DNA of 58,890 nucleotides. It comes from Oscillospiraceae bacterium. GTDB lineage: Bacteria > Bacillota > Clostridia > Oscillospirales > UBA929. The notes beneath the pieces are model-generated. The model searched no databases. It had not been told where the DNA came from and saw nothing but the letters and a program-made list of their open reading frames with translations. Both the position numbers and the translations under genes were made by a program. Location of the stretch: assembly GCA_009777255.1 (NCBI GenBank), contig WRMG01000003.1:1-58890 (forward strand), in the 5' to 3' direction. Positions 1-57,997 of this stretch are shown one piece after another (positions within the stretch are counted from its first letter, which is position 1; every line of letters starts with the position of its first letter).

Positions 1-212
1 CCGCCCCCGGCGCGCCGTGTTCCCTCCGCCGGCCCGTCGTAGGGGCGCGCATTGCGCGTCCGGTGTTATACGTTGCCGTTGTATGCGGCGCGTCAGGGAT
101 GCCGCGCCGTACAAAAACGGCGCATGTAGGGCGCGACGCCCCCGGCGCGCCGTGGGGTGACGACCACCCCGCCGCGCGGGGCGCGGCACCCCTCCAAGGA
201 GGGGAATTGGGA
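1..212. repeat. REP/BIME-like mosaic of GC-rich hairpin modules (truncated by window edge)
   Basis: GTAG+palindrome units at 39-61 (GTAGGGGCGCGCATTGCGCGTCC) and 126-151. Hairpins at 86-109, 154-170 and 171-187. CCCCTCCaaGGAGGGG at 189-204 followed by AATTGGG. 166-212 is nearly identical to 10281-10324. Confidence 0.8.
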
Positions 213-243
213 CGGGGCAAGTTCCATATGAAAGAGGTTTGTT

Positions 244-2530: not shown

Positions 2531-3769
2531 ATGGAAAAGAAGGTATTCGGCATCAACGCGGGAAAGGTGCTGCTGCTGAGGGACGACCCCGAGGCGTTTG
2601 CCGGTTATGACGGCGTTGAGATCAACGCGGGGAAGGTCATAGCCTCAAGGAAAATGTACGAGCGGCTGCAAGGCATGGGCGCCGCAATAAACTGCGGCGT
2701 TGTGAAGGTGCTGGACATTAAGGGCGAGGTCGCGGAGCTGGACGGAAACACCGTCATCACCGGCGCGGAGGATTACAGCGGGCGTTTTGTCGTGTGCGAC
2801 GGGAATCTTGTCGTCGAGAGCGCGGAGGGGCTGAGGGGCGCCGAGGGGATTTACGCCGGCACGCTGTTTTATCCCGAGTCCGCGGACTTGAGCGGGGTGA
2901 GGAATATTTCGGCGGACAACAGGGTCGCGTATCCCGACGGGGCGAAGCTGAGGCTGGAGGGGCTGGAGCTGGGCGGTGACGCGCATATCGTCCTTGAGGG
3001 CGGCGCGCTTTATTGGGTACACGGGAGAATAAAGGCGCTGGACGGCGGCGCGCTGGAGAAGCTGGACGGCAAAGGGACGACGTTCAAGTGCGGGACGCTG
3101 ATAATTTACGCGGGGCTTTACGAGCGGTTCCGTGAAATGTTCAAAGCGGACAGGTATGAGTTCATACCCGACGGGTACGGCGTGGCTGACGGCGACCTCT
3201 CGCTGGACGCGGGCACGGCGGCGCTTTACGGCGACAGGCTGGTTATAAACGGCGACTTGACGGTCGCGCATGACCAGGCGGGGCATTTGAAAGCGTTTAA
3301 GGCGCTGAAGGTGAACGGCGCGGTCACGATGCCGGTTTCAGCCGCCGCGGACTTTAAGGCCGTGGGCAGCGCGGAGGAGTTTGAGCTGTACGAGGGCGTG
3401 CTGCTTAACGTGAACGGGTTCCAGACGATAGGGAGCGGGCAGCTGAGAACGGCCGCCGCCGCCGGAGGGAAGTATACGATAAAGGTGAACGGCGCGCTGT
3501 ATTTCGACTCCGCCGTGACGGCGGAGGACATGGAGGCCATCGCCGCCGTACACTGCAACGGGATCATCAGCGCGCCGGACGCCGCGCGGGGCGGGCTTGA
3601 CGGCAAGGTGAGGGAGCTTAACGGGATGATACTCGACGCGGACGCGATGCTGAAAAAGGCTTACGGCGAGGATTTTTCAGCCGACCCCATAGGCGCGATG
3701 AAAAAAATAAAGGAGATGGCCGGAGTCGTCGCCGGAAGCGGGGTTAACGCGGGGAAATATCGCAATTAA
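2531..3769 (+). CDS. hypothetical soluble protein with short recurring (I/V/L/C)N(A/G/C)G-type strand motifs
   Basis: 412-aa ORF with GAGAGGAG RBS. It starts 21 nt after the ECF sigma gene. No signal peptide or TM segment is visible. Motifs INAGKV x2, INCGVV, INGDL, VNGAV, VNGAL, CNGII, LNGMI recur. Confidence 0.7.
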   Translation: MEKKVFGINAGKVLLLRDDPEAFAGYDGVEINAGKVIASRKMYERLQGMGAAINCGVVKVLDIKGEVAELDGNTVITGAEDYSGRFVVCDGNLVVESAEGLRGAEGIYAGTLFYPESADLSGVRNISADNRVAYPDGAKLRLEGLELGGDAHIVLEGGALYWVHGRIKALDGGALEKLDGKGTTFKCGTLIIYAGLYERFREMFKADRYEFIPDGYGVADGDLSLDAGTAALYGDRLVINGDLTVAHDQAGHLKAFKALKVNGAVTMPVSAAADFKAVGSAEEFELYEGVLLNVNGFQTIGSGQLRTAAAAGGKYTIKVNGALYFDSAVTAEDMEAIAAVHCNGIISAPDAARGGLDGKVRELNGMILDADAMLKKAYGEDFSADPIGAMKKIKEMAGVVAGSGVNAGKYRN

Positions 3770-3782
3770 CGGTTAAGAAAAA

Positions 3783-3818
3783 AACCGCGCGGGGCGTTGA
3801 CAGGCCGCGCGGTTTTGT
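3783..3818 (+). terminator. rho-independent terminator after the 412-aa gene
   Basis: AACCGCGCGG / CCGCGCGGTT 10-bp stem, 12-nt loop, then a TTTTGTG tail. Confidence 0.75.
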
Positions 3819-3826
3819 GTTATCCT
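3797..3826 (+). promoter_or_regulatory. candidate pyr operon promoter embedded in the terminator hairpin
   Basis: TTGACA (3797-3802) lies in the terminator loop, then 17-18 nt to TTATCC/TATCCT (3820-3826), about 40 nt upstream of pyrB. Confidence 0.4.
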
Positions 3827-3863
3827 GTTATGGGACATTAAGGTATTAAAGGGGAGGGTCATT

Positions 3864-4787
3864 ATGGGGCTTGAGAGCAGGAATCTTATCAGCACCCTTG
3901 ATTTTTCAATTGAAGAACAGGATGAGGTATTGGCTTTGGCGGAGCGAATCATGGCGGCGCCGAAGGAATATGATCATTTGCTGGGAGGCCGGATAATGGC
4001 GTCCCTATTTTTTGAGCCCAGCACGCGCACAAGGCTGAGCTTCGAGGCCGCTATGCTGCGGCTGGGAGGACGGGTGATCGGGTTCTCGGAGGCGGGGTCG
4101 TCATCGGCGGCCAAGGGCGAGAGCCTGAGCGACACCATACGCACGGTGAGCCAATACGCGGATATTATCGTCGTGAGGCACCCCAAGGAGGGCGCGGCGA
4201 ACATCGCCGCGGGCGTTTCGGGGGTCCCCGTCGTCAACGCCGGCGACGGCGGGCACGAGCATCCGACGCAGACGCTGACGGACCTGTTGACGATACGCTC
4301 GGTGAAAAAACGCGTCGGCGGGCTTGCGGTCGGCTGCTGCGGGGACTTGAAGTTCGGGCGCACGGTACATTCGCTGGTGAAGAATATCAGCCGTTATGAG
4401 GGGGTGTCGTTTATCTTCGCGTCGCCGGACGAGCTGAGGATACCGAGATTTTTGCGGGCGTTTTTGGACGACAACGGCGTTGAATACGTCGAAACGGACA
4501 GAATGGACGGGAAAATAGCGGAGATGGATGTGCTGTATATGACGCGGGTGCAGAAGGAGCGGTTTTTTAACGAGGAGGAGTATATCAGGCTGAAGGATCT
4601 TTTTATACTCGACGCGGGCAAGCTGAGGAGCGCGAAAGAGGATCTGTGCATACTGCACCCGCTGCCGAGGGTGAACGAGATCGCGTATGAGGTGGACGCG
4701 GACAAACGCGCGGCGTATTTTCATCAGGCGGGCTGCGGCATGTACGCGCGCATGGCGCTGATGGCGTCGCTGCTGGGCGCGGTGTAA
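3864..4787 (+). CDS. pyrB: aspartate carbamoyltransferase catalytic subunit
   Basis: STRTR, HPTQ and HPLPR motifs. GGGGAGGG RBS. Confidence 0.95.
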
Positions 4788-4799
4788 AGGAGGGGTGAT

Positions 4800-5240
4800 A
4801 TGAAAGGGCAAAGGTTGGTTAACTCGATAGAAAAGGGCATTGTTATCGACCATATCCGCGCGGGGCTGGGGGTCAAGCTGTTCCACTTTTTGAAGCTGGA
4901 CAACGCGGATTTTACGGTGGTCATCATCTCCGGCGCGGAGAGCAAACGCATGGGACGCAAGGATATTATCAAAATTCAGAATATGATTGATATTGATTAT
5001 ACGGTCATCGGGCTGATAGACCACAACGCGACGATCTCAATAATCGAGGACGGGGAGATAACGGAGAAGAAAAAGCTGGAGCTGCCGCGCAGGGTCGAGA
5101 ACGTTATTGTTTGCAAAAACCCGCGCTGCATAACCTCGACGGAGAGGCAGATACCGCATGTTTTCAGCTTGCAGAACGCGGAGACGCGCACATACCGCTG
5201 CGATTACTGCGAGGACCATGTGCGCGGGATAGAGATATGA
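4800..5240 (+). CDS. pyrI: aspartate carbamoyltransferase regulatory subunit
   Basis: C-terminal zinc domain CxxxxC...CxxC (CKNPRC...CDYC). It immediately follows pyrB. Confidence 0.9.
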   Translation: MKGQRLVNSIEKGIVIDHIRAGLGVKLFHFLKLDNADFTVVIISGAESKRMGRKDIIKIQNMIDIDYTVIGLIDHNATISIIEDGEITEKKKLELPRRVENVIVCKNPRCITSTERQIPHVFSLQNAETRTYRCDYCEDHVRGIEI

Positions 5241-6436
5241 TAATCAAAAACGCGGTGCTGGTTGACTGGCGCGGGGTGCGCCGGGGCGAGCTGATTATCA
5301 AGGACGGCGTTATCGCGGAGCAGGGCGGAACAGGCGATATTATTGACGGGACGGGGCTTTATGTAATGCCGGCGTTTGTCGATTTGCACGCGCATCTGCG
5401 CACGCCGGGGCAGACGCATAAGGAGGATATAGCGAGCGGCACGCGCGCCGCCGTAAGGGGCGGGTATACCGCGCTGAACGCGATGGCGAACACTGTTCCC
5501 GTGTGTTCGGACGCGGAGATCGCGCGGGAGGTCTGTGAACAGGCGCGGGCGCTTGGGCGTTGCGATGTTTTTCAGAGCGTTAGCGTGACGCGGGATTTTG
5601 ACGGCGTGACGGTTTCGCATCTGGACGGGCTGGACGGCACGGAGGGGTTTATAAGGTGCATCTCGGAGGACGGGCGCGGCGTTAAGGACGGCGGCGTTTT
5701 TCTGGAAGCGCTGCGGCGGGCGGAGCGGTTTGGTAAAGCGCTGCTTGTCCACGCGGAGGACGCCGATTTCAGCGGGATAGATATGTATGCCGCCGAGGAT
5801 TTGGAAACGGCGCGGGATTTGTATATTGTTGAGATGTATTGCGGAAGGTATGGGAGAGAGAGGCTGAAGGTCCATTTCTGCCATGTTTCGACGGAGTATT
5901 CCGCGCGGGCGGTTATCGCCGCGAAGCGGCGGGGGCTGCCGGTGAGCCTTGAGGTGACGCCGCATCATATCGCGCTGAGTGACAGTGTTGACTTTCGCGT
6001 GAATCCGCCGCTGAGGCGCGAGGAGGACAGGGCATTTTTGGTGAAAGCCGTGCTGGACGGCGAGGTTGACGCTATCGCCACGGACCACGCGCCGCATACG
6101 GAGACGGAAAAGAAGAGCGGTGCGCCGGGACTGGTCGGGCTTGAAACGGCGTTTCAGGTGTGCTATACTACTCTTTGCCGCCTAAACGGGCTGCCGCTGT
6201 CAAGGCTGTCGGAGCTGATGAGCCTTAATCCCGCGCGGATACTGGGGATAAACAAGGGCTCGCTGGACGCCGGCGCCGACGGCGACGTCGTGTTGGTAGA
6301 CTTGGAGCGCGAGACGATTGTTGACAGCTCCGAGTTTTTCTCAAAAGGGAGAAACACGCCGTTTGACGGGAGAACGTATTTCGGCGGGGTTGTGATGACG
6401 ATAAAAAACGGGGAGGTTGTATATGATGAACGTTGA
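5237..6436 (+). CDS. pyrC: dihydroorotase
   Basis: DLHAHLR metal motif and DHAPH. ATG at 5237 gives an ATGA overlap with the pyrI stop. The track's 5111 start lies inside pyrI. Confidence 0.92.
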   Translation: MIIKNAVLVDWRGVRRGELIIKDGVIAEQGGTGDIIDGTGLYVMPAFVDLHAHLRTPGQTHKEDIASGTRAAVRGGYTALNAMANTVPVCSDAEIAREVCEQARALGRCDVFQSVSVTRDFDGVTVSHLDGLDGTEGFIRCISEDGRGVKDGGVFLEALRRAERFGKALLVHAEDADFSGIDMYAAEDLETARDLYIVEMYCGRYGRERLKVHFCHVSTEYSARAVIAAKRRGLPVSLEVTPHHIALSDSVDFRVNPPLRREEDRAFLVKAVLDGEVDAIATDHAPHTETEKKSGAPGLVGLETAFQVCYTTLCRLNGLPLSRLSELMSLNPARILGINKGSLDAGADGDVVLVDLERETIVDSSEFFSKGRNTPFDGRTYFGGVVMTIKNGEVVYDER

Positions 6437-7286
6437 TAAGCTGTATGACAACGCGGCGCGGAACGGCGTGGTGTGTCTGGGGCTGGACACCTCGGCGGCG
6501 TACATACCCGAGGGGTTTTTGGCGGGGTTTAATACCGTCGGCGAGGCGGTTTTCGAGTTCAACAGGAAAATAATCGACGCGACGTGTGACGCCGTGGCGT
6601 GCTACAAGGTCCAGATCGCCTATTACGAGGCCATGGGGCTGGAGGGGCTTGCGGCGTATTCAAAAACGCTGAAATACATAAAGAGCGCCGGGCAGCTGGC
6701 TATCGCCGACGTGAAGCGCGGGGACATCAAGGAGACGGCCGCGATGTACGCGAAAGCGCATTATTCGGGGGATTTTGAGGCGGATTTTGTCACGCTGAAC
6801 CCGTATATGGGCATGGATACGCTGGAGCCGTTCGAGCCGTATTTCGCGGAGGGCAAGGGGTGCTTCGCGCTGGTCAGGACCTCGAATGCCGGCGCGCGGG
6901 ACATACAATACTTGAGCGCGGACGGCGGCCGCAGGGTTTATGAAATTGTGGGAGAAAAGCTAAAAGCCTTGGGGGAGAAGCACATGGGCGCGCGCGGGTA
7001 CTCGGCGGTCGGCGCGGTTGTGGGCGCGACCAATGCTGAGGAGGGCGCAACCCTTAGAGAAAAACTTAGCACAACATTTTTTCTGATACCCGGGTTTGGG
7101 GCGCAGGGCGGGCGCGGCGCGGACGCGGCGGTGTACCTGCGGGACAATAACGGCGGGACGGTGAACTCGTCGCGTGCGGTGCTGACGCGCTGGAAAAAGC
7201 ATGAGGACGGCGCGGCGCGGTTTGACAGCTACGCGCGGGCGGAGGTCTTGGATATGAGAGAACAGATAGTAGTTACAAGTTACTAG
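6423..7286 (+). CDS. pyrF: orotidine 5'-phosphate decarboxylase (long/type 2 form)
   Basis: DVKRGDI motif and position in the pyr operon. ATG at 6423/6426 follows the GGGGAGG RBS. The track start 6417 is a TTG. Confidence 0.9.
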   Translation: MMNVDKLYDNAARNGVVCLGLDTSAAYIPEGFLAGFNTVGEAVFEFNRKIIDATCDAVACYKVQIAYYEAMGLEGLAAYSKTLKYIKSAGQLAIADVKRGDIKETAAMYAKAHYSGDFEADFVTLNPYMGMDTLEPFEPYFAEGKGCFALVRTSNAGARDIQYLSADGGRRVYEIVGEKLKALGEKHMGARGYSAVGAVVGATNAEEGATLREKLSTTFFLIPGFGAQGGRGADAAVYLRDNNGGTVNSSRAVLTRWKKHEDGAARFDSYARAEVLDMREQIVVTSY

Positions 7287-7298
7287 TTACTAGTTACA
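7271..7298 (+). repeat. four tandem heptamers AGTTAC(A/T) spanning the pyrF stop codon
   Basis: AGTTACA AGTTACT AGTTACT AGTTACA read directly. The pyrF TAG (7284-7286) lies inside units 2/3. Confidence 0.9.
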
Positions 7299-7385
7299 AG
7301 AGGAATACCCTGCCGCCTGCGGGCGGGGGGGGTGCGGGGCGCTTGGTGTGCGTTCCCTACCACAAAAAAGGGCAGGGTGAGGCGT

Positions 7386-8102
7386 ATGGGATATTTTAGC
7401 GCGAAAGTTTTGGCTAACGACAGGATTCATGACGGGGTTTACAGCATGAAAATCGCCGCCGGAACGGCGGGGGTCAGGCCGGGGCAGTTTTATATGCTGA
7501 TGCCGCGGGCGGCGCTGCTGGGGCGTCCGCTGAGTGTGTGCGAGCTTGGGGACGGGTGGATTGAGTTCTGTTACGCCGTCGTCGGGAAGGGCACGAGGGA
7601 GTTTTCTCAACTTCGAGAAAACGATGATATAGCCGCAAACGGGCCGGTTGGCAACGGCTTTGACGTTGATTTTATCAACACGCGTAAGCGCGTGGCGGTG
7701 GTGTCGGGCAGCGTGGGGATCGCGCCGTTTGTCGAGCTTGTGAAGCGGCTGACATGCGAGGTCAGTTGCTTTTGCGGGTTCCATGGTGGGAGTTATCTGA
7801 CGGAGCGGCTGCGTAACGTGAGCATCGCCACCGAGAGCGGCGCCGAGGGGCACAAGGGGCTTGTCACGGAGATATTTGACCCGCGCGGGTTTGAGCTGGT
7901 GCTGGCGTGCGGCTCGGAGGCGTTTTCAAAGGCGGTCACGCTGAAGTGCAAGGACGCCGGAACGTCGCTGCTCATCTCGCTTGACAGGCATATGGCGTGC
8001 GGCGTGGGCGCGTGTCTGTGCTGTACATGCGCGACGGCGGAGGGTAATAAACGATGCTGTGTAGACGGGCCGGTGTTTTGGGGAGAGGATTTAACATGCT
8101 AA
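7386..8102 (+). CDS. pyrK: dihydroorotate dehydrogenase electron-transfer subunit
   Basis: FAD/NAD-binding fold and C-terminal 2Fe-2S motif [14 protein letters not shown] at 7386 follows GGGTGAGG. Confidence 0.88.
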
Positions 8103-8995
8103 AGGTTTCGCTGTGCGGGGTGGAGCTTAAAAACCCTGTCATTATGGCGTCGGGGACGTTTGGATTCGGGCGGGAGTACGCGGGGTTCTATGATCTGTCG
8201 AGGCTGGGCGGCATTTGCACGAAAGGGCTGACGCTGGAGCCGCGCGAGGGCAACAGTGGGCGGCGCTCGCATGAGACGGCGATGGGGATGCTTAACAGCG
8301 TCGGTTTGCAAAACCCGGGTGTCGCGGCGTTTATTAAAGCTGAGCTGCCGTTTATGCTGGGACTGGGCACGGCGGTAATCGCCAATGTGGGCGGCAGCGA
8401 GCCGGAGGACTATATAAAATCCGTGGAGCTGCTGAACGGGACCGGCGTGAGCGTGATAGAGCTGAACATATCCTGCCCCAATGTGAAAAGGGGCGGCATG
8501 GCCTACGGGATCAAGGCGGCGACGGCTTACGCGTTCGTGCGGGAGATAAAGCGGGTGTGCAAGAAGCCGCTGATGGTAAAGCTGTCGCCGAACGCCGAGA
8601 ACATAATCGAGATGGCGGCGGCGTGTGAGGACGCGGGCGCGGACGCACTGTCGCTTATCAACACGCTGAAGGGCATGGCGGTGGATGTAAACACGCGGCG
8701 GCCGGTGTTTGACAATGTGTTCGCGGGGCTGTCGGGGCCGGCGGTGAAGCCCGTCGCGCTGAGGATGGTCTATGAGGTATGCAAATCTGTCAAGGCGCCC
8801 GTTGTGGGGATTGGCGGGATTGCCTGTGCCGCGGACGTGCTGGAGTTTATCATGGCCGGCGCGGCGGCGGTGCAGGTGGGCACCGCGAATTTCGTCAACC
8901 CCATGTGCGGTGCGGAGATTGTTGACGAGCTTCCGGCGCTGATGGAGCGTTTGGGGATAAAGACAATTGACGAGGTGAGAGGCGCGGCGCTGTAG
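8096..8995 (+). CDS. pyrD: dihydroorotate dehydrogenase B catalytic subunit
   Basis: Class 1B DHODase features (SGTFG, NxSCPN, GGI). ATG at 8096 overlaps the pyrK end. The TAG stop at 8993-8995 lies inside a GTAGGG repeat head. Confidence 0.92.
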
Positions 8996-9491
8996 GGGCG
9001 CGCATCGCGCGTCCGAGAGAAAAAACCTCCGGCCCTGCGGGGCCACCTCCTTTACAAAAGGAGGCAAGGAAGGCGCGGGGTTGCGGCGTTGTTGTAGGGG
9101 CGCGCATTGCGCGTCCGCCCGGGGACAATTGTTTCACGTGAAACAATTCCACCCCCCGTTTGTGTAGGGGCGACCGTCCCCGGTCGCCCGCCGTCCCCGG
9201 CGTACGGCGCGGCATCCCTGACGCGCCGTGGCAAATAACCCCATAACACCACACCCCGTTAACAACCGCGGGCGGTCGGGGGCGACCGCCCCTACACACG
9301 CCCGCCGTTCCATCCTGCCCCCTTTCGTAAAGGGGGTGCCGCCCCAACGGCGGGGGATTTACCACGGACGGCCAATGGCCGCCCCTACACACACGTCGCA
9401 CACCGCCCCAATTCCCCTCCATGGAGGGGTGGCCGGCGCAGCCGGACGGGGTGGTCGTCACCCACGGCGCGATAAGGACATCGCGCCCTAC
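8992..9491. repeat. BIME-like mosaic of at least 14 hairpin modules between pyrD and pyrE
   Basis: GTAG+hairpin units on + at 8992-9014, 9094-9116 and 9164-9189, and on - at 9270-9295, 9366-9388 and 9466-9491. Other hairpins at 9031-9044, 9046-9064, 9205-9228, 9318-9336, 9339-9353, 9414-9429, 9433-9445 and 9449-9463. Confidence 0.85.
9127..9148. promoter_or_regulatory. parS: parS (ParB/Spo0J binding site), perfect consensus
   Basis: TGTTTCACGTGAAACA at 9130-9145, a 16/16 match to the parS consensus. It extends to the 22-bp perfect palindrome AATTGTTTCACGTGAAACAATT. Confidence 0.85.
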
Positions 9492-9507
9492 GAAAGGAGA
9501 GATATAT

Positions 9508-10074
9508 ATGCGGGAGTTTGTTGTTGAGAGATTGATTGAGGCGGGCGCGTATTTGGAGGGGCATTTTTTATTGTCCTCGGGGCGGCACTCGGACAGGTAC
9601 TGCCAGTGCGCGAAGCTGTTTGAGGACCCGAAAACAGCCGCCGACGTCATTGCGGCGGCGGCGGAGAAGCTGAAGGGCGTTGACTTTGACCTTATCGCCG
9701 GGCCCGCGATGGGCGGGATTATCGCGGCGTATGAGCTGTCGCGTCAGACGGGGAGGCCGAACGTTTTCACCGAGCGCGAGAACGGCGTTATGTGTCTGCG
9801 CCGGGGGTTTTCAATAAAGCCGGGGGCGCGGGTGATCATTATGGAGGACGTTGTGACCACGGGGAAGTCCACCCTTGAAACTGCGGCGGCCATAAGGGCG
9901 CTGGGCGGCGTTGTGGCGGGTGCGGCGTGTATAGTTGACAGAGGCGCCGGTGACTTGGGGTTCCCGCTTTATGCGGCGGCGCGGATACGCGTTGAGAGCT
10001 ACAGCGCCGAGGATTGCCCGCTGTGCGCCGCAGGGGAAATTGAGCTTGTAAAGCCGGGGAGCCGTAAGTTTTAA
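9508..10074 (+). CDS. pyrE: orotate phosphoribosyltransferase
   Basis: PRPP-binding motif VIIMEDVVTTGKS. ATG at 9508 follows AAAGGAGAG. The track start 9421 lies inside the repeat mosaic. Confidence 0.92.
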   Translation: MREFVVERLIEAGAYLEGHFLLSSGRHSDRYCQCAKLFEDPKTAADVIAAAAEKLKGVDFDLIAGPAMGGIIAAYELSRQTGRPNVFTERENGVMCLRRGFSIKPGARVIIMEDVVTTGKSTLETAAAIRALGGVVAGAACIVDRGAGDLGFPLYAAARIRVESYSAEDCPLCAAGEIELVKPGSRKF

Positions 10075-10116
10075 TGAGAGCGGAAACCGCGCCGATGTCG
10101 TGAAATGTCGCACCCG

Positions 10117-10142
10117 CAAAATGTTTCACGTGAAACATTTTG
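10117..10142. promoter_or_regulatory. parS: parS, perfect consensus
   Basis: TGTTTCACGTGAAACA at 10122-10137 inside the 26-bp perfect palindrome CAAAATGTTTCACGTGAAACATTTTG. Confidence 0.85.
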
Positions 10143-10450
10143 GCGGCGGCAAAACAAACACGGGACGCGCGACAAAACAAATACGGGACGCCGAGGACGT
10201 CGTCCCCTACGGAACCCCCGTCTTTGCCCGGCAGGGCACCTGCCCGGCGCGATGAGGACATCGCGCCCTACGAAACCCCCCCGCCGCGCGGGGCGCGGCA
10301 CCCCTCCGAGGAGGGGAATTGGGGTGACGGGGCGTGTGTAGGGGCGACCGTCCCCGGTCGCCCGTGTGTGTTAGCGGTGTGTGGCGTTATGCGGTTATGT
10401 GCCACGGCGCGTCAGGGAAACCGCGCCGATGTCGTGAAATGTCGCACCCA

Positions 10451-10476
10451 CAAAATGTTTCACGTGAAACATTTTG
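10451..10476. promoter_or_regulatory. parS: parS, perfect consensus
   Basis: TGTTTCACGTGAAACA at 10456-10471 inside the same 26-bp palindrome as the 10117-10142 copy. Confidence 0.85.
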
Positions 10477-10541
10477 GCGTGCGGAAGAGCAAACGGGACG
10501 CGCGACAAAATAAACACGGGACGCCGAGGGGCAGGCGTCCC

Positions 10542-11276
10542 CTACGCGGAACCGCCCCTACGCGCCAGCACAAACGGCAGGTATAAAAACGTCCAGATGA
10601 CGGCCAGCAGCGGGATGACGCCCAGCAAATACCCGGGGTTCCCCAGAAAGGCCTCGAACGGTTCCAGCGGCGACCCGGGGGACGGCCAGTTGGCAAAGAA
10701 GAAGTTTGTGCCGAAGACCTTGTTGAATATATAAACCGGCGCGCCGAACGCGAGCAGCATTAAAACGCATTTGGGCAGGCGTTTTATCTCGGGGCGGACG
10801 TCGCCGCCTGCCACAGTCATGATTATGTACGCGCACAGGAGGATGTGTGTGATGAACGATTGCAGGCTTTGGATGTTAAGTATCGGGTAGCGCGTCCAGT
10901 CGGGAAAGGCCAGCGCGCTTAAAGCGCCGGGCAGCCCGAGGCAGTACAGGAACTCCCCCGTCAGCGTGCCGCCGCGTATTGCGTGGACCAGCACAAGCGC
11001 CTGAACGACGTCGCAGAGATGAAACGGCAGATAGTCCAGGCTGAAGATGCCGGCGTTTATCTGGAAGATTATCCGCCACAGCTGGAGCGCCGTTATAATT
11101 ACGGCGATAACGAGGCCCATGCGGCGCCTGCCGGACTGCGGCTTGCCGCGGTATATCAGGCTGAGCGCGGCGCAGACCGCGGCGCCGGCAGCCAGCCATA
11201 TAAGATGCTCCGGCCCGTACATTTGGATGCCGATTTCGGGCGGCAGGTTTTCGCCCAGCAGAAAAAAGTTTTCCAT
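10542..11276 (-). CDS. polytopic membrane protein (YwaF/TIGR02206-like, tentative)
   Basis: 244-aa ORF with about 7 hydrophobic segments. The C-terminal residues ...LARRGGSA and the TAG stop are encoded by GTAGGG-type repeat sequence. Confidence 0.7.
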   Translation of the reverse strand: MENFFLLGENLPPEIGIQMYGPEHLIWLAAGAAVCAALSLIYRGKPQSGRRRMGLVIAVIITALQLWRIIFQINAGIFSLDYLPFHLCDVVQALVLVHAIRGGTLTGEFLYCLGLPGALSALAFPDWTRYPILNIQSLQSFITHILLCAYIIMTVAGGDVRPEIKRLPKCVLMLLAFGAPVYIFNKVFGTNFFFANWPSPGSPLEPFEAFLGNPGYLLGVIPLLAVIWTFLYLPFVLARRGGSA

Positions 11277-11424: not shown

Positions 11425-11502
11425 GGTGGGTATAGCTCAGTTGGTTAGAGTACCAGATTGTGGCTCTGGGGGTCGGCGGTTCAATTCCGCTTACCCACCC
11501 CA
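11425..11502 (+). tRNA. tRNA-His (anticodon GTG)
   Basis: Hand-folded cloverleaf. G-1 pairs with discriminator C, acceptor GTGGGTA/TACCCAC, anticodon loop TTGTGGC, T-loop GGTTCAATT, encoded CCA. Confidence 0.9.
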
Positions 11503-11574
11503 GTCGGGAGCGTCCCGATGATCGCCAGCCCGACCGTATCGGATGCCGAAAAGTCCGGCGTCAGTTACCCAAGT

Positions 11575-11651
11575 TGGGATGTAGCCAAGCCGGTAAGGCA
11601 CCAGACTTTGACTCTGGCATTCCGCAGGTTCGAGTCCTGCCATCCCAGCCA
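11575..11651 (+). tRNA. tRNA-Gln (anticodon TTG)
   Basis: Acceptor TGGGATG/CATCCCA, anticodon stem CCAGA/TCTGG with loop CTTTGAC, T-arm GGTTCGAGTCC, encoded CCA. Confidence 0.9.
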
Positions 11652-11703
11652 GCCGAGTGCCTCGGCGCGCAAACGGACGAACGGGCCGGGGCACGAACCG
11701 TAT

Positions 11704-11779
11704 GACCCGCTAGCTCAGTCGGCAGAGCACCTGCCTTTTAAGCAGGGTGTCCGCAGTTCGAATCTGCGGCGGGTCACCA
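11704..11779 (+). tRNA. tRNA-Lys (anticodon TTT)
   Basis: Acceptor GACCCGC/GCGGGTC, D-arm GCTCAGTCGGCAGAGC, anticodon loop CTTTTAA, T-arm AGTTCGAATCT, encoded CCA. Confidence 0.9.
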
Positions 11780-15169: not shown

Positions 15170-16546
15170 CTACTTCAGTTTATCGCGGGAGAGATATTCC
15201 TTTGTCATGCCCATTACGACCTTGCTCAGCAGTATCAGCGCGATAAGGTTCGGAATGGCCATCAGCCCGTTAAGCGTGTCGGCGATGTCCCAGACAAGCG
15301 TGAGGCCGCCGATTGCGCCCACGACTATCAAGCCGCAGAAAATCAACTTATAACCCAGCTCCAAGGATTTGCTCTTGTTCGTGAGGTAGCCGAGGCACTG
15401 CTGCCCGTAATACGACCAGCTTATAATCGTGGAACCGGCGAAGCACAGTATGGCAATCGAAACAAAGTACGCTCCGAAGGTGCCGAAGGTGCCCTCGAAT
15501 GACGCGATGGTCAGCGGCGCTCCCGAAAGCCCGCCCTCATACAAACCGGCGGTGAGAATGACGAGCGCGCTGATCGTGCAGATGATAAGCGTATCCACAA
15601 AGACCTCGAAAACGCCCCAAAGCCCTTGATTGACAGGGTCCTTGTTCCGTGAAGCGGCGTGCGCTATAGGAGCCGAGCCAAGACCGGCCTCGTTGGAAAA
15701 TACGCCGCGGGCGACGCCGTAACGCATGGCGCGCATTATAACATAACCCATTATGCCGCCGCCGACGGACTGGAACGAAAAAGCGTTTGAGAAGATTGCC
15801 CCGAACGCTCCCGCCAGCTTGTCCGCGTGAGCGATAATGATAGCCAATCCGCCGAGGAAATAAAAGATTGCCATGAAAGGCACCAGCTTCTCCGTCACGG
15901 ACGCGATACGCTTGATGCCGCCGATGATAACCAGCGCGGTGAGCGCCGCGATGACGATACCTGTGGCCAGCGGGGGGATGCTGAAGGTGCTTTCAAGCGA
16001 GCCGGCTATGGCGTTGGACTGCGTCATGTTGCCGATGCCGAAGGCCGCGAGCGCGCCGAATACGGAGAAAATGACCGCCATCACCTTGCCCAGACCTTTG
16101 GATTTAAGCCCGTTTCTCATATAGTACATGGGGCCGCCGTGGTAGACGCCGTTCGCGTCCGTTTCGCGGTACTTGACGGCAAGCACGACCTCGGCGTATT
16201 TGGTCATCATGCCGAAGAAGCCCGACATCCACATCCAGAACACCGCGCCGGGGCCGCCGAGGACGATAGCCGTCGCAACACCCGCGATGTTGCCGACGCC
16301 GACCGTCGCGGCCATCGCCGTTGTGACCGCCTGGAACGGCGTGATGTTGCCGTCGATGTTTTTCTCGCCCTTTTTGCCTGAGAACAGCGCTCCGAAAGTG
16401 GCCTTCCACCAGACGCCGATGCGGCTTACCTGAAACGCGCCCGACCAGACGGTGAAGAACACGCCCGTGCCGACCAGCAGTATCAGCATGGGCGGGCCCC
16501 ACACAATACCGTTCAGCCAGTCGTTGAAGTTTAGAATACCTTCCAT
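15170..16546 (-). CDS. alanine/glycine:cation symporter (AGCS family)
   Basis: 458 aa, about 11 TM helices. The N-terminus and the GGPGAVFWMW and FSNEAGLGS motifs are typical of sodium:alanine symporters. Confidence 0.88.
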   Translation of the reverse strand: MEGILNFNDWLNGIVWGPPMLILLVGTGVFFTVWSGAFQVSRIGVWWKATFGALFSGKKGEKNIDGNITPFQAVTTAMAATVGVGNIAGVATAIVLGGPGAVFWMWMSGFFGMMTKYAEVVLAVKYRETDANGVYHGGPMYYMRNGLKSKGLGKVMAVIFSVFGALAAFGIGNMTQSNAIAGSLESTFSIPPLATGIVIAALTALVIIGGIKRIASVTEKLVPFMAIFYFLGGLAIIIAHADKLAGAFGAIFSNAFSFQSVGGGIMGYVIMRAMRYGVARGVFSNEAGLGSAPIAHAASRNKDPVNQGLWGVFEVFVDTLIICTISALVILTAGLYEGGLSGAPLTIASFEGTFGTFGAYFVSIAILCFAGSTIISWSYYGQQCLGYLTNKSKSLELGYKLIFCGLIVVGAIGGLTLVWDIADTLNGLMAIPNLIALILLSKVVMGMTKEYLSRDKLK

Positions 16547-22023: not shown

Positions 22024-22060
22024 CAATTAACAATGAACAATTAACAATTGGGAACTGTTC

Positions 22061-22192
22061 GTAGGGCGCGATGTCTTCATCGCGCCGTTTTTATTGCGAT
22101 GTTTTTATTGCGATGTCTTCATCGCGCCGTTTTCATTGCATTGTTTTTATCGCGCCGTTTTTATTGCGCCGTTTTTATCGCGCCGTTTTTAT
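22061..22192 (+). repeat. degenerate tandem array of hairpin plus T-run units
   Basis: GTAGGGCGCGATGTCTTCATCGCGCC at 22061-22086, a partial second copy at 22110-22128, then repeated (A)TCGCGCCGTTTTTAT(T) units. Confidence 0.8.
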
Positions 22193-22194
22193 AA

Positions 22195-22219
22195 GGGCGG
22201 CGGGGTGCCGCCCTTTTTT
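22195..22219 (+). terminator. rho-independent terminator
   Basis: GGGCGGC ggggt GCCGCCC followed by TTTTTT. Confidence 0.8.
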
Positions 22220-22286
22220 GTCGCGCTATGTCGTGTTGCGCCGTGATATGTTGATTGCACACATATTTGCCGCACAACGCCGTCCG

Positions 22287-28807: not shown

Positions 28808-28859
28808 ATAAATCTCCCGATATATTTTATTCCGAAACGCGGCTTATTAGACCGCCACT

Positions 28860-28888
28860 ATTCTATATCATAATTTTATGTGTGTCAA
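28860..28888 (-). promoter_or_regulatory. candidate prfB promoter
   Basis: Minus strand TTGACA (28888-28883), 17 nt, TAGAAT (28865-28860). The -35 directly abuts a CCCTAC repeat head. Confidence 0.55.
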
Positions 28889-28964
28889 GTAGGGTCAGGG
28901 TTCCATCCCTGACCGCCGTGGGTTCCATCCCTGACCGCCGTGTGCAGGGTTCCATCCCTGACCG
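28889..28964. repeat. three tandem copies of an 18-nt hairpin core GGGTTCCATCCCTGACCG
   Basis: Copies at 28898-28915, 28920-28937 and 28947-28964. The first is headed by GTAGGG (28889-28894). Each folds as GGTCAGGG/CCCTGACC-type stems (TCAGGG ttccat CCCTGA). Confidence 0.9.
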
Positions 28965-28991
28965 GAGACTTACCCCTGCGCGGCACAACAT

Positions 28992-29019
28992 AAAAAAGGC
29001 CGGGCATGGAAGCCCGACC
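28992..29019 (-). terminator. rho-independent terminator of the YtrA-type operon
   Basis: Minus strand GGTCGGGC ttccat GCCCGGCC followed by TTTTTT. Confidence 0.8.
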
Positions 29020-29038
29020 CCGCAAAGCCCTGTACGCG

Positions 29039-44880: not shown

Positions 44881-44927
44881 AATTAACAGCTCCTTAACAT
44901 TTCCTCGGTTGACAACGGCACGGGAGT

Positions 44928-44957
44928 ATTATACACTTTGTTTTGGATGATTGTCAA
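44928..44957 (-). promoter_or_regulatory. candidate promoter of the AKR-MATE operon
   Basis: Minus strand TTGACA (44957-44952), 18 nt, TATAAT (44933-44928). Confidence 0.55.
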
Positions 44958-44991
44958 GGCGGGCCAACCCATTAAAGCTCCGTCCTTTCGT

Positions 44992-45034
44992 GTAGGGGAC
45001 GATGCATACGGCGCGCCGGGGCGTCGCGCCCTAC
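44992..45034. repeat. 43-nt element bounded by inverted GTAGGG ... CCCTAC termini
   Basis: GTAGGGGACGATGCATACGGCGCGCCGGGGCGTCGCGCCCTAC. The 3' part (45010-45034) is the reverse complement of the unit at 126-151, apart from one C. Confidence 0.8.
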
Positions 45035-45105
45035 AGTTAAATAGATGTTGCAGCGGACGGCGGGCCGTTCCGACGGGATGAGAATAACGGCAAGGGGATT
45101 TTATT

Positions 45106-51977: not shown

Positions 51978-52003
51978 ATAAACAGCGGGGCGCCCGTTAC
52001 AAA

Positions 52004-52038
52004 AACCCCCTGCGGCGGTGGCCGCAAGGGGGTTTGTT
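52004..52038. terminator. bidirectional terminator (serves pnp on the minus strand)
   Basis: CCCCCTGCGGC ggtg GCCGCAAGGGGG, flanked by AAAAA (a T-run on the minus strand) and TTTGTT. Confidence 0.8.
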
Positions 52039-52052
52039 CATGTTGTTTAGTA

Positions 52053-52075
52053 GCGTGCGCAATGCGCGTCCCTAC
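52053..52075 (-). repeat. GTAG+hairpin REP-like unit containing the pnp stop codon
   Basis: Minus strand GTAGGGACGCGCATTGCGCACGC. The TAG at 52074-52072 is the pnp stop. Confidence 0.8.
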
Positions 52076-54217: not shown

Positions 54218-54259
54218 GGGGGCAAAGCCCCCGCGTTGCCCGCAGGGCGCCTGCCCTAC
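54218..54259 (-). other. rpsO-pnp intercistronic hairpins (one is a GTAGGG-headed unit)
   Basis: Minus strand GTAGGGCAGGCGCCCTGC (GCAGG cgc CCTGC), then GGGGGC ttt GCCCCC. The rpsO TAG stop (54258-54256) lies inside GTAG. Confidence 0.7.
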
Positions 54260-57436: not shown

Positions 57437-57468
57437 CGGCGGACGCGTCAAGCGACCGCCGGTTTTTT
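57437..57468 (+). terminator. rho-independent terminator
   Basis: CGGCGG (13-nt loop) CCGCCG followed by G and TTTTTT. Confidence 0.75.
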
Positions 57469-57527
57469 GCGCCCCCAACGTGCCCCCGCCCCACGCCCCG
57501 CCGTGCCCCCCGCGCGCGCCGTACCCT

Positions 57528-57739
57528 GTAGGGACGGTCGCCCCGCCCCCCCGTCGCGCCCTCAGCCATCTTTAGAAAAGAGGGTGGCGCGAAGCGCCGG
57601 GTGTTTTGCGTCCCCCGTCCGTTTCCCCAATTCCCCTCCTTGGAGGGGTGGCGCGAAGCGCCGGGGTGGTTTCCCCCACAGGGCCAAAAAATCAAATCAC
57701 CCGCCGGCCACGGGCCGGCACCCTCTTTGCGAAAGAGGG
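57528..57739. repeat. REP/BIME-like hairpin mosaic
   Basis: GTAGGGACGGTCGCCCC head at 57528. Hairpins at 57567-57583, 57586-57598, 57633-57648 (CCCCTCCttGGAGGGG preceded by CCCCAATT), 57650-57662, 57703-57719 and 57721-57739. Confidence 0.8.
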
Positions 57740-57997
57740 CAAGGGTCACGCGGGCGGCGGCCGATTTTCCCTCGCGGGGCCGTTTTATTTTTTCATTTGT
57801 CCGCCGCTGACGCGCGGCGAATACCCCTTGTAATATGCCGCGAGGCCCCTCCGTATGACCCCAAAATGCAGTTCGCTCCGCTAAAAGTGCTTTTCGCTCC
57901 ACGAAATGACCTCAAAACGGAAAATCCATGTTATTATATTTCATAGCGGTTTTATTTCCCGGCGGCTGCCGCAAAACACTATGTGAGGTATAATATT

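Follow-up and report, generated by a model that had tools for sequence, protein, structure and literature searches.

Between the pyrD and pyrE genes of an Oscillospiraceae bacterium (assembly GCA_009777255.1) lies a 512-bp spacer rich in short hairpins. We analyzed the 58,890 nucleotides of contig WRMG01000003.1 that include both genes (here called the window; forward strand) and conclude, with a probability of about 0.8, that the spacer is a cluster of GTAG-tagged repetitive extragenic palindromes (REPs) that resembles a bacterial interspersed mosaic element (BIME), is of the kind associated with REP-associated tyrosine transposases (RAYTs), and was inserted in trans into a short gap. The spacer contains REPs of at least five subfamilies (A, B/B', D, E, and F), with headless hairpins and composite modules interleaved among them. 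The evidence lies in the architecture of the units, in their dispersal and pairing, and in a family of RAYTs from other genomes in whose genes the same sequences are found.

Architecture of the pyrD-pyrE spacer

The spacer runs from 8996 to 9507 and has the size first claimed for it, with the pyrD stop codon (TAG) at 8993-8995 and the pyrE start codon (ATG) at 9508. A ribosome-binding site, AAAGGAGAG, is found at 9493-9501, upstream of the ATG, and the closest homologue of PyrE aligns from residue 1. The units of the spacer are as follows.

8992-9014, plus strand: REP, A-type variant, GTAGGGGCGCGCATCGCGCGTCCG over 8992-9015; 8-bp stem with one G.T pair, loop of 3 nt
9030-9064, no strand assigned: two headless hairpins, GGCCCTGCGGGGCC and CCTCCTTTACAAAAGGAGG, from the hairpin scan
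9094-9116, plus strand: REP, A-type, GTAGGGGCGCGCATTGCGCGTCCG over 9094-9117
9127-9148, no strand assigned: perfect 22-nt palindrome AATTGTTTCACGTGAAACAATT, core TGTTTCACGTGAAACA
9164-9189, plus strand: REP, B-type, GTAGGGGCGACCGTCCCCGGTCGCCCG over 9164-9190; perfect 9-bp stem
9202-9228, plus strand: REP, E-type, degenerate GTAC head, GTACGGCGCGGCATCCCTGACGCGCCG
9270-9295, minus strand: REP, B'-type, GTAGGGGCGGTCGCCCCCGACCGCCC; inverted partner of the B unit at 9164
9318-9357, no strand assigned: two headless hairpins, CCCCCTTTCGTAAAGGGGG and CCGCCCCAACGGCGGGGG
9366-9388, minus strand: REP, D-type, GTAGGGGCGGCCATTGGCCGTCCG over 9365-9388; forms the outer inverted pair with the A unit at 9094
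9403-9463, minus strand: composite module M1, three small hairpins
9466-9491, minus strand: REP, F-type, GTAGGGCGCGATGTCCTTATCGCGCC; copies at 10246-10271 and 22061-22086

Six of these units carry a GTAG(GG) head followed by a stem of 8 to 9 bp and a loop of 3 to 4 nt (6 nt if a G.T pair is disallowed), and all six lie where the original prediction had placed them, three on each strand. The prediction that one head is attached to several stem families also held, as the A, B/B', D, and F units are all GTAG-headed. GTAG stands at stem offset 0 in the six spacer units and in 13 strict units of the window, and the REP units are short GC-rich palindromes of 23 to 28 nt, with stems of 8 to 9 bp and loops of 3 to 8 nt. 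The stems of the A and D types share a conserved G.T pair. The E-type unit, GTAC-headed at 9202-9228, occurs in a GTAG-headed form in other genomes. The stop codon of pyrD is the TAG of the GTAG head at 8992, and the F-type unit ends at 9491, leaving the 16 nt to the pyrE ATG that had been claimed.

Some of the units form inverted doublets that are nested with their heads outward, the B unit (9164) and B' (9295) lying inside and the A unit (9094) and D (9388) lying around them. The arms of the B/B' pair (9161-9194 and 9265-9298) are 34 nt long, 82% complementary, and 70 nt apart. When the spacer was folded as RNA (z = -7.9), the minimum-energy structure paired A with D and nested the B-B' pairing within. 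Inverted pairs like those of REPINs (REP doublets) and BIMEs, as the original prediction had it, are thus present.

Enrichment and dispersal within the window

A hairpin scan of the plus strand found 11 spacer hairpins with stems of at least 6 bp, versus 3.2 ± 1.5 in shuffled sequences, and the total comes to about 15 when the minus-strand D unit and three 5-bp hairpins are counted. The earlier figure of at least 14 hairpins was a fair count, but the REP architecture ascribed to all of them applies to about half, as only 7 of the roughly 15 hairpins have a GTAG-type head. Across the window, GTAG-plus-hairpin units number 13 versus about 1 in shuffled sequences, and all 13 are intergenic in a window of which intergenic DNA makes up about 10%. 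Likewise, GTAGGGGCG occurs 8 times versus 0.58 expected. The bare hexamer GTAGGG was not enriched in the window (23 occurrences versus 18.3 expected).

The window as a whole contains about 19 to 22 REP units belonging to at least seven subfamilies and spread over eight intergenic regions, with none in genes. Besides the spacer, the REP-bearing gaps are these.

1-243: REP-rich gap; A 39-62 (plus), E 86-112 (minus), C 126-151 (plus), M1 155-215 (plus)
10075-10541: REP-rich gap 3' of pyrE; G 10185-10210 (minus), F 10246-10271 (minus), M1, B 10338-10363 (plus), E-like 10405-10430, G-like 10518-10545 (minus)
22024-22286; 28808-29038; 44881-45105; 51978-52071; about 57500-57690: other REP-bearing gaps

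REP-bearing gaps for which both neighbours are known lie between unidirectional or convergent genes, the sole exception being 44881-45105, which is divergent. The recurrences reported earlier at 39-61, 126-151, 10246-10271, 10338-10363, 22061-22086, 44992-45034, and 52053-75 are real, and the REP-like stretch at about 57500-57690 had been overlooked.

Dispersed copies are identical over their length and differ in their flanks. The A unit at 9094-9117 equals 39-62 (24/24), the B unit at 9161-9190 equals 10335-10364 (30/30), and the E unit at 9202-9228 is complementary to 86-112 (27/27). Larger pieces recur as well. A 99-nt composite doublet at 9205-9303, comprising the E hairpin, a 40-nt linker, and the B' REP, is the reverse complement of 10330-10428 (85% over 99 nt), and this doublet is present twice in the window. 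Module M1 at 9403-9463 is the reverse complement of 155-215 (84%) and occurs again at 10275-10324 and in part at 57619-57655.

Copies and pairing in other genomes

The original prediction was accompanied by the suggestion to look for the motifs beyond the window, and they are not confined to it. In a collection of species-representative genomes, the exact A-type 25-mer was found at at least 120 loci and the exact B-type 28-mer at at least 102. The hosts are mainly metagenome-assembled genomes (MAGs) of Oscillospiraceae and other Clostridia, many of them from termite guts, and further hosts are Synergistaceae, Chitinispirillia, Desulfuromonadales, Betaproteobacteria, one Bulleidia genome, and the complete genome of Petroclostridium sp. 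X23. The exact sequences are therefore spread over Bacillota, Synergistota, Fibrobacterota/Chitinispirillia, Desulfuromonadales, and Betaproteobacteria, at loci with GC contents of 0.38 to 0.61, and in other genomes they lie on many contigs per MAG. A degenerate pattern for the C, E, and F types matched 120 more loci, with hosts that include Verrucomicrobiota and the isolates Lawsonibacter faecis and Pseudoflavonifractor capillosus. By comparison, the 15 modules, searched with up to 2 mismatches, had no match in 887 kb of control pyr loci of other bacteria.

Pairing elsewhere follows the pattern of the spacer. At the REP-selected loci, B units were paired heads outward (B+B-) 25 times versus 2 in the opposite arrangement (B-B+), and A and D formed 38 convergent pairs (A+D- or D+A-) with a median gap of 27 to 29 nt. 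In other genomes, A and D habitually pair with each other, and the same two types bracket the inner part of the spacer in the window.

RAYT-like genes carry the same REP sequences

When the open reading frames (ORFs) adjoining the A-type REP at 120 loci were clustered, no flanking RAYT family emerged. RAYTs surfaced only among ORFs of other genomes that contain REP-encoded peptides. These RAYT-like proteins are 160 to 185 residues long and have an N-terminal strand (YFVTIC), an HUH motif (MPNHIHMI), the sequence WQxSYHDHIIR, and a C-terminal YIxxNP. A profile of the family matched Escherichia coli TnpA_REP (PDB 4ER8) at E = 6.1e-13, with PnHvH and YI..NP, the HUH and tyrosine regions, aligned. 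One member matched the NCBIfam model NF047646 (REP-associated tyrosine transposase, REP_Tyr_transpos) at 7.8e-17. At least 7,940 database proteins match the family at E <= 1e-10, and many of these are named "REP element-mobilizing transposase RayT" by the Joint Genome Institute.

Every complete RAYT-like gene contains its REP twice in frame and in opposite orientations, the forward copy just after the first beta strand and the reverse copy just after the HUH strand. The in-gene sequences are exactly those of subfamilies A, B, or C of the window, in these loci of other genomes.

L007 (6504-6983), L001, L079: RAYT-like genes with A-type REP; L079 is cut at the locus edge, and the forward REP copy alone is visible
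L125, L150, L159, L176 (6614-7108), L199: RAYT-like genes with B-type REP
L180 (5831-6364): RAYT-like gene with C-type REP

Peptides of the D type are found in further RAYT homologues (P0068 and P0106). The reverse REP copy of L159 has compensatory changes in its stem. As a side observation, the gene of L150 carries three tandem forward REP copies. Moreover, the similarity of the proteins tracks the type of REP that they carry, RAYTs that share a type being more alike than those of different types. Outside the REP-encoded columns, mean identity was 0.69 for A-A and 0.58 for B-B comparisons, 0.51 for A-B comparisons, and 0.64 between the partner types A and D. The search for a RAYT-like gene that had been suggested along with the original prediction thus succeeded in part: genes of other genomes carry the exact REPs, but none is in the window. 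The claim that the units are GTAG REPs of the RAYT-associated kind stands, both on the enrichment of head-plus-stem units and on the RAYT-like genes with the same sequences elsewhere.

We considered phages and plasmids as the main vehicle of the REPs and rejected them. Among 2.9 million viral contigs, the A and B REPs turned up at just 2 loci each, and plasmid homologues of the RAYT are rare, the five matches being distant (~30% identity) and located on large non-mobilizable replicons. Phages and plasmids do not look like the main carriers.

Proposed origin of the cluster

The gap between pyrD and pyrE was probably short at first, as it is in other Clostridia, where it measures about 20 to 130 nt in about 50 cases. 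In the nearest available relative, a termite-gut Oscillospiraceae MAG with 80% identity in PyrD, the gap is 143 nt and contains a single REP doublet of another subfamily, and the TAG of pyrD again lies within a GTAG head. Searches of genome and metagenome collections with the PyrD locus found no strain closer than 80% PyrD identity. The cluster would have grown by repeated, stepwise, and partly nested insertion of REP singlets and doublets, in an order that we infer. Insertion was probably carried out by HUH/Y1 single-strand DNA endonucleases of the RAYT (TnpA_REP) type, which would be encoded elsewhere in the genome, act in trans, and recognize the folded hairpin and its 5' GTAG on one strand. 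Insertion in trans is suggested by the processing of folded single-stranded REPs by TnpA_REP in vitro, which needs the hairpin and the conserved 5' motif (PMC8266576; PMC3333891). The cognate enzymes would resemble TnpA_Y1 subclass 2.4, with their own REP twice in frame and in opposite orientations, and a RAYT is presumably encoded in the genome of this organism.

How the mosaic might affect the pyr operon can be proposed from the predicted structure. No promoter-like site and no plus-strand terminator-like site were predicted in the spacer, and no RNA family matched it, so pyrE is probably cotranscribed with the upstream genes through a highly structured intercistronic RNA of 512 nt. Any present-day effect would be a by-product of insertion. 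By analogy with the REPs of E. coli, the RNA may shield the upstream message from 3' exonucleases, may reduce or uncouple the expression of pyrE and so alter the pyrE:pyrD ratio, or, as the stop codon of pyrD lies in the first REP, may disturb termination there. The consequence for the operon could be the structured intercistronic RNA together with a stop codon that lies in a hairpin.

REPs are usually called species specific. The result that we least expected, a by-product of the analysis, is that identical REPs occur across phyla and GC contents and are carried within RAYT genes. Tentatively, the genome of a gut Oscillospiraceae-type bacterium might be regarded as a REP "ecosystem" in which at least seven GTAG-REP subfamilies coexist, and the REP-RAYT modules as self-seeding elements that spread horizontally instead of being lineage specific and vertically inherited. 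Identical master sequences would recur across phyla and base compositions, each inside its own RAYT as an inverted pair, such that a transferred RAYT gene could bring along the seed copies of its REP family, and nested operon mosaics would be the footprint. Self-seeding horizontal spread may explain the identity across phyla; alternatively, the identity might reflect ascertainment by exact matching or selective constraint. Should it reflect transfer, the view of REPs as species specific and vertical would have to be qualified.

Alternative explanations

Several results weigh against a cluster of RAYT-inserted REPs. Neither tblastn nor a full-sensitivity hidden Markov model (HMM) search of six-frame translations found a RAYT homologue in the 58.9-kb window, and the matches that both returned were REP-encoded peptides only. 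The absence says little, as 58.9 kb is only a few percent of a genome. The NCBIfam score of the RAYT-like protein was 61.5 bits, below the cutoff of 80, and its match to Pfam Y1_Tnp was weak (14.4 bits versus a cutoff of 23). About half of the roughly 15 spacer hairpins have no GTAG head and may differ in origin. Finally, no transposition event or insertion polymorphism was seen, as the nearest strain has 80% PyrD identity. The possibility that the spacer is itself a decayed RAYT pseudogene was rejected by the same full-sensitivity search of six-frame translations.

One alternative is that the REPs are immobile, inherited remnants whose RAYTs have been lost, such that the mosaic is decaying neutral DNA. 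The lack of a RAYT in the window agrees with it, as do degenerate heads or mismatched stems at 9202 (GTAC), 52053-75, 44992, and 57528, and gain followed by loss has been proposed for class 2 genes (Quentin et al. 2018, PMC6006769). Relics seem unlikely, however, as dispersed copies within the window are 100% identical over 24 to 30 nt in different flanks, and intact RAYT genes elsewhere contain the very same master sequences. A mixed origin, in which the GTAG units are REPs and the headless hairpins and composite modules are other small elements or spacer segments of REPINs, is possible; it complements the RAYT-inserted cluster and likely applies in part. The modules concerned (M1, the TGTTTCACGTGAAACA palindrome, the CCTCCTTT and CCCCCTTT hairpins, and a block of about 130 nt) could be palindromes that bind protein or resemble miniature inverted-repeat transposable elements, spread otherwise or by recombination. 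They are repeated in the window with no GTAG head attached, blocks of 61 to 130 nt are repeated as units, and the modules are rare or absent at the REP-selected loci elsewhere (M1c and Hx, 0 copies; P1, 1 copy). Conversely, M1a, M1b, Hb, and He co-occur with A and B REPs elsewhere, albeit infrequently, and are absent from the control loci, and the modules always adjoin GTAG units, like the spacer or linker segments of BIMEs.

Firmicutes pyr operons use RNA attenuation, and the spacer lies directly upstream of pyrE with a strong predicted structure (z = -7.9), both of which would suit a dedicated pyrE leader that evolved in place, whether a PyrR-type attenuator, a riboswitch, or a terminator/antiterminator. 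We regard such a leader as very improbable. The modules are found in unrelated intergenic regions, both in the window and in other genomes, and this dispersal largely refutes it. Furthermore, orthologous spacers are short and different. Known RNA families and a PyrR leader were rejected because Rfam gave no match in the spacer at the gathering threshold and none at E <= 1 over 3700-10700, and an intrinsic terminator or PyrR-type attenuator was rejected because, in addition, no plus-strand terminator-like site is present in the spacer. A CRISPR or tandem array was rejected too, as none was found in 8900-10700 except a 23-nt sequence repeated twice at 10146, and the spacer units are in both orientations and irregularly spaced. 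That the hairpins are chance palindromes of GC-rich DNA or an artifact of assembly or binning has next to no probability. It is true that the window is GC rich (57%), that bare GTAGGG is not enriched, and that many related matches are in MAGs, but longer words and units of head plus stem greatly outnumber those in shuffled sequences. Moreover, exact 25- to 28-mers occur in hundreds of loci, including the isolates Petroclostridium sp. X23, L. faecis, and P. capillosus, and the repeats are shorter than assembler k-mers. Thus, a BIME-like cluster of RAYT-associated REPs remains our preferred explanation.

The pyr operon and other features of the window

The window (GC content, 0.57) contains a plus-strand pyr operon, pyrB-pyrC-pyrF-pyrK-pyrD followed by pyrE, as assigned by Pfam.

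3864-4787, plus strand: pyrB
5111-6436, plus strand: pyrC
6417-7286, plus strand: pyrF
7332-8102, plus strand: pyrK
8054-8995, plus strand: pyrD, dihydroorotate dehydrogenase (Pfam DHO_dh, 2.5e-74)
9508-10074, plus strand: pyrE, orotate phosphoribosyltransferase-like (Pfam Pribosyltran)

A 412-residue ORF at 2531-3769, just 5' of pyrB, had no Pfam match, and three tRNA genes lie consecutively on the plus strand at 11426-11776. A TAG inside GTAGGG ends five genes of the window (8993-8995, 10542-10544, 15170-15172, 52072-52074, and 54256-54258). Three of these stops (8993, 10542, and 52072) belong to clear REP heads in the orientation of the gene; those at 15170 and 54256 overlap GTAGGG with only weak hairpins 3' of it, which may be decayed REPs. 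The GGCCCTGCGGGGCC hairpin at 9030-9045, just 3' of pyrD, is terminator-like on the minus strand, where it is followed by T6, and no minus-strand gene lies upstream of it.

Other repeats surround pyrE. The two copies of the E+B doublet (9205-9303 and 10330-10428) bracket the gene 1,026 nt apart and could permit its inversion or excision by recombination. The perfect palindrome TGTTTCACGTGAAACA, with a CACGTG core, occurs three times (9130-9145, 10122-10137, and 10456-10471); symmetric changes in its flanks preserve a palindrome of 22 to 26 nt, and it is nearly missing from the REP loci of other genomes (1 match). It could serve as a binding site for a protein or be a small element in its own right. 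Downstream of pyrE, a composite block of about 130 nt is directly repeated (10082-10212 and 10416-10547, 334 nt apart), the first copy being truncated at the end of pyrE. The block comprises a hairpin tail, ATGTCGTGAAATGTCGCACCC, a 26-nt perfect palindrome, the 23-nt sequence repeated twice, and a G-type REP.

Elsewhere in the window, REPs adjoin tandem repeats. The F-type REP in the convergent gap at 22058-22206 precedes about 8 tandem copies of a 14-nt unit (CGCGCCGTTTTTAT-like) that derives from the 3' arm of the REP and a T-run. Likewise, GTAGGGTCAGGGTTCCATCCCTGACC, a GTAG unit from a different family at 28889-28968, precedes about 3 tandem copies of a 22-nt repeat. The longest ORF at 57467-57946 (159 residues) crosses the C-rich, REP-like stretch at 57500-57690 with its M1 copy and is unlikely to be a genuine gene. 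Mosaics of this kind account for spurious GC-rich ORFs in annotations and for long gaps within operons.

Relation to known REP systems

The REP/BIME cluster is of a known kind, newly documented in an Oscillospiraceae-like genome and with unusually many coresident subfamilies. REP and REPIN-RAYT systems have been worked out almost wholly in Proteobacteria, and the same architecture is dense here in an uncultured Clostridia-type gut bacterium, with subfamilies linked to a RAYT lineage that has the REP in its own coding sequence. The statement in the original prediction that such systems are much less well described in Firmicutes-type genomes than in Proteobacteria was too strong, as group 1 RAYTs have been reported in Clostridia (Bertels 2017, PMC5581495) and TnpA_Y1 subclass 2.4 extends across phyla (PMC6006769). 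The A, B, and C hairpins, together with their RAYTs, are clear substrates for the biochemistry of REP recognition outside Proteobacteria.

As in the REPs and BIMEs of E. coli, GTAG sits at the base of an imperfect, GC-rich palindrome whose stem has a G.T pair or a mismatch, and the units cluster between genes in alternating orientation, both 3' of genes and within operons. The associated protein is also homologous to E. coli TnpA_REP (4ER8), with the HUH and tyrosine motifs aligned. The stems here, however, are shorter and nearly perfect (8 to 9 bp, loop of 3 to 4 nt), at least seven subfamilies coexist instead of the Y, Z1, and Z2 types, and the host is of a Clostridia type. Moreover, the related RAYTs hold REPs inside the gene, whereas those of E. 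coli only flank it.

Likeness is also found in TnpA_Y1 subclass 2.4, of which in-frame REPs inside tnpA_REP are the hallmark and which has a patchy spread across phyla (Quentin et al. 2018, PMC6006769). The RAYT-like genes of other genomes that carry the REPs of the window share four features with that subclass: canonical GT[AG]G REPs with a stem that starts with three G-C pairs, in-frame REPs within the gene, no extra C-terminal domain, and a patchy distribution over phyla. Thus, the cognate enzymes look like subclass 2.4, to which they are likened by its published description. They differ from the subclass as described in having a second, forward REP copy also 5' of the HUH motif, between beta strand 1 and the first helix, a copy that the description does not stress. 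Furthermore, subclass 2.4 was reported to be abundant in Cyanobacteria and Bacteroidetes, and the genes found here are in Oscillospiraceae and other gut taxa.

The REPINs of Pseudomonas (Bertels and Rainey 2011, PMC3116915) are likewise near-identical dispersed copies in which inverted doublets predominate with their heads outward, and every type of REP has a RAYT lineage of its own, as is seen here. Unlike in Pseudomonas, the doublets here are often heterologous (A with D and B with E). Pseudomonas REPINs are also lineage specific and have been described as vertically inherited, whereas identical REPs are found here across phyla and over GC contents of 0.38 to 0.61. Finally, the units match the GTAG REP superfamily (Di Nocera et al. 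2013, PMC3733652) in their GTAG tag, in dimers set 20 to 100 bp apart, in their position between unidirectional or convergent ORFs, and in a GTAG terminus whose TAG serves as the stop codon for the ORF upstream, which is the case for pyrD here. The subfamilies of the window appear to be additional to that set, as its text never mentions Firmicutes or Clostridia.

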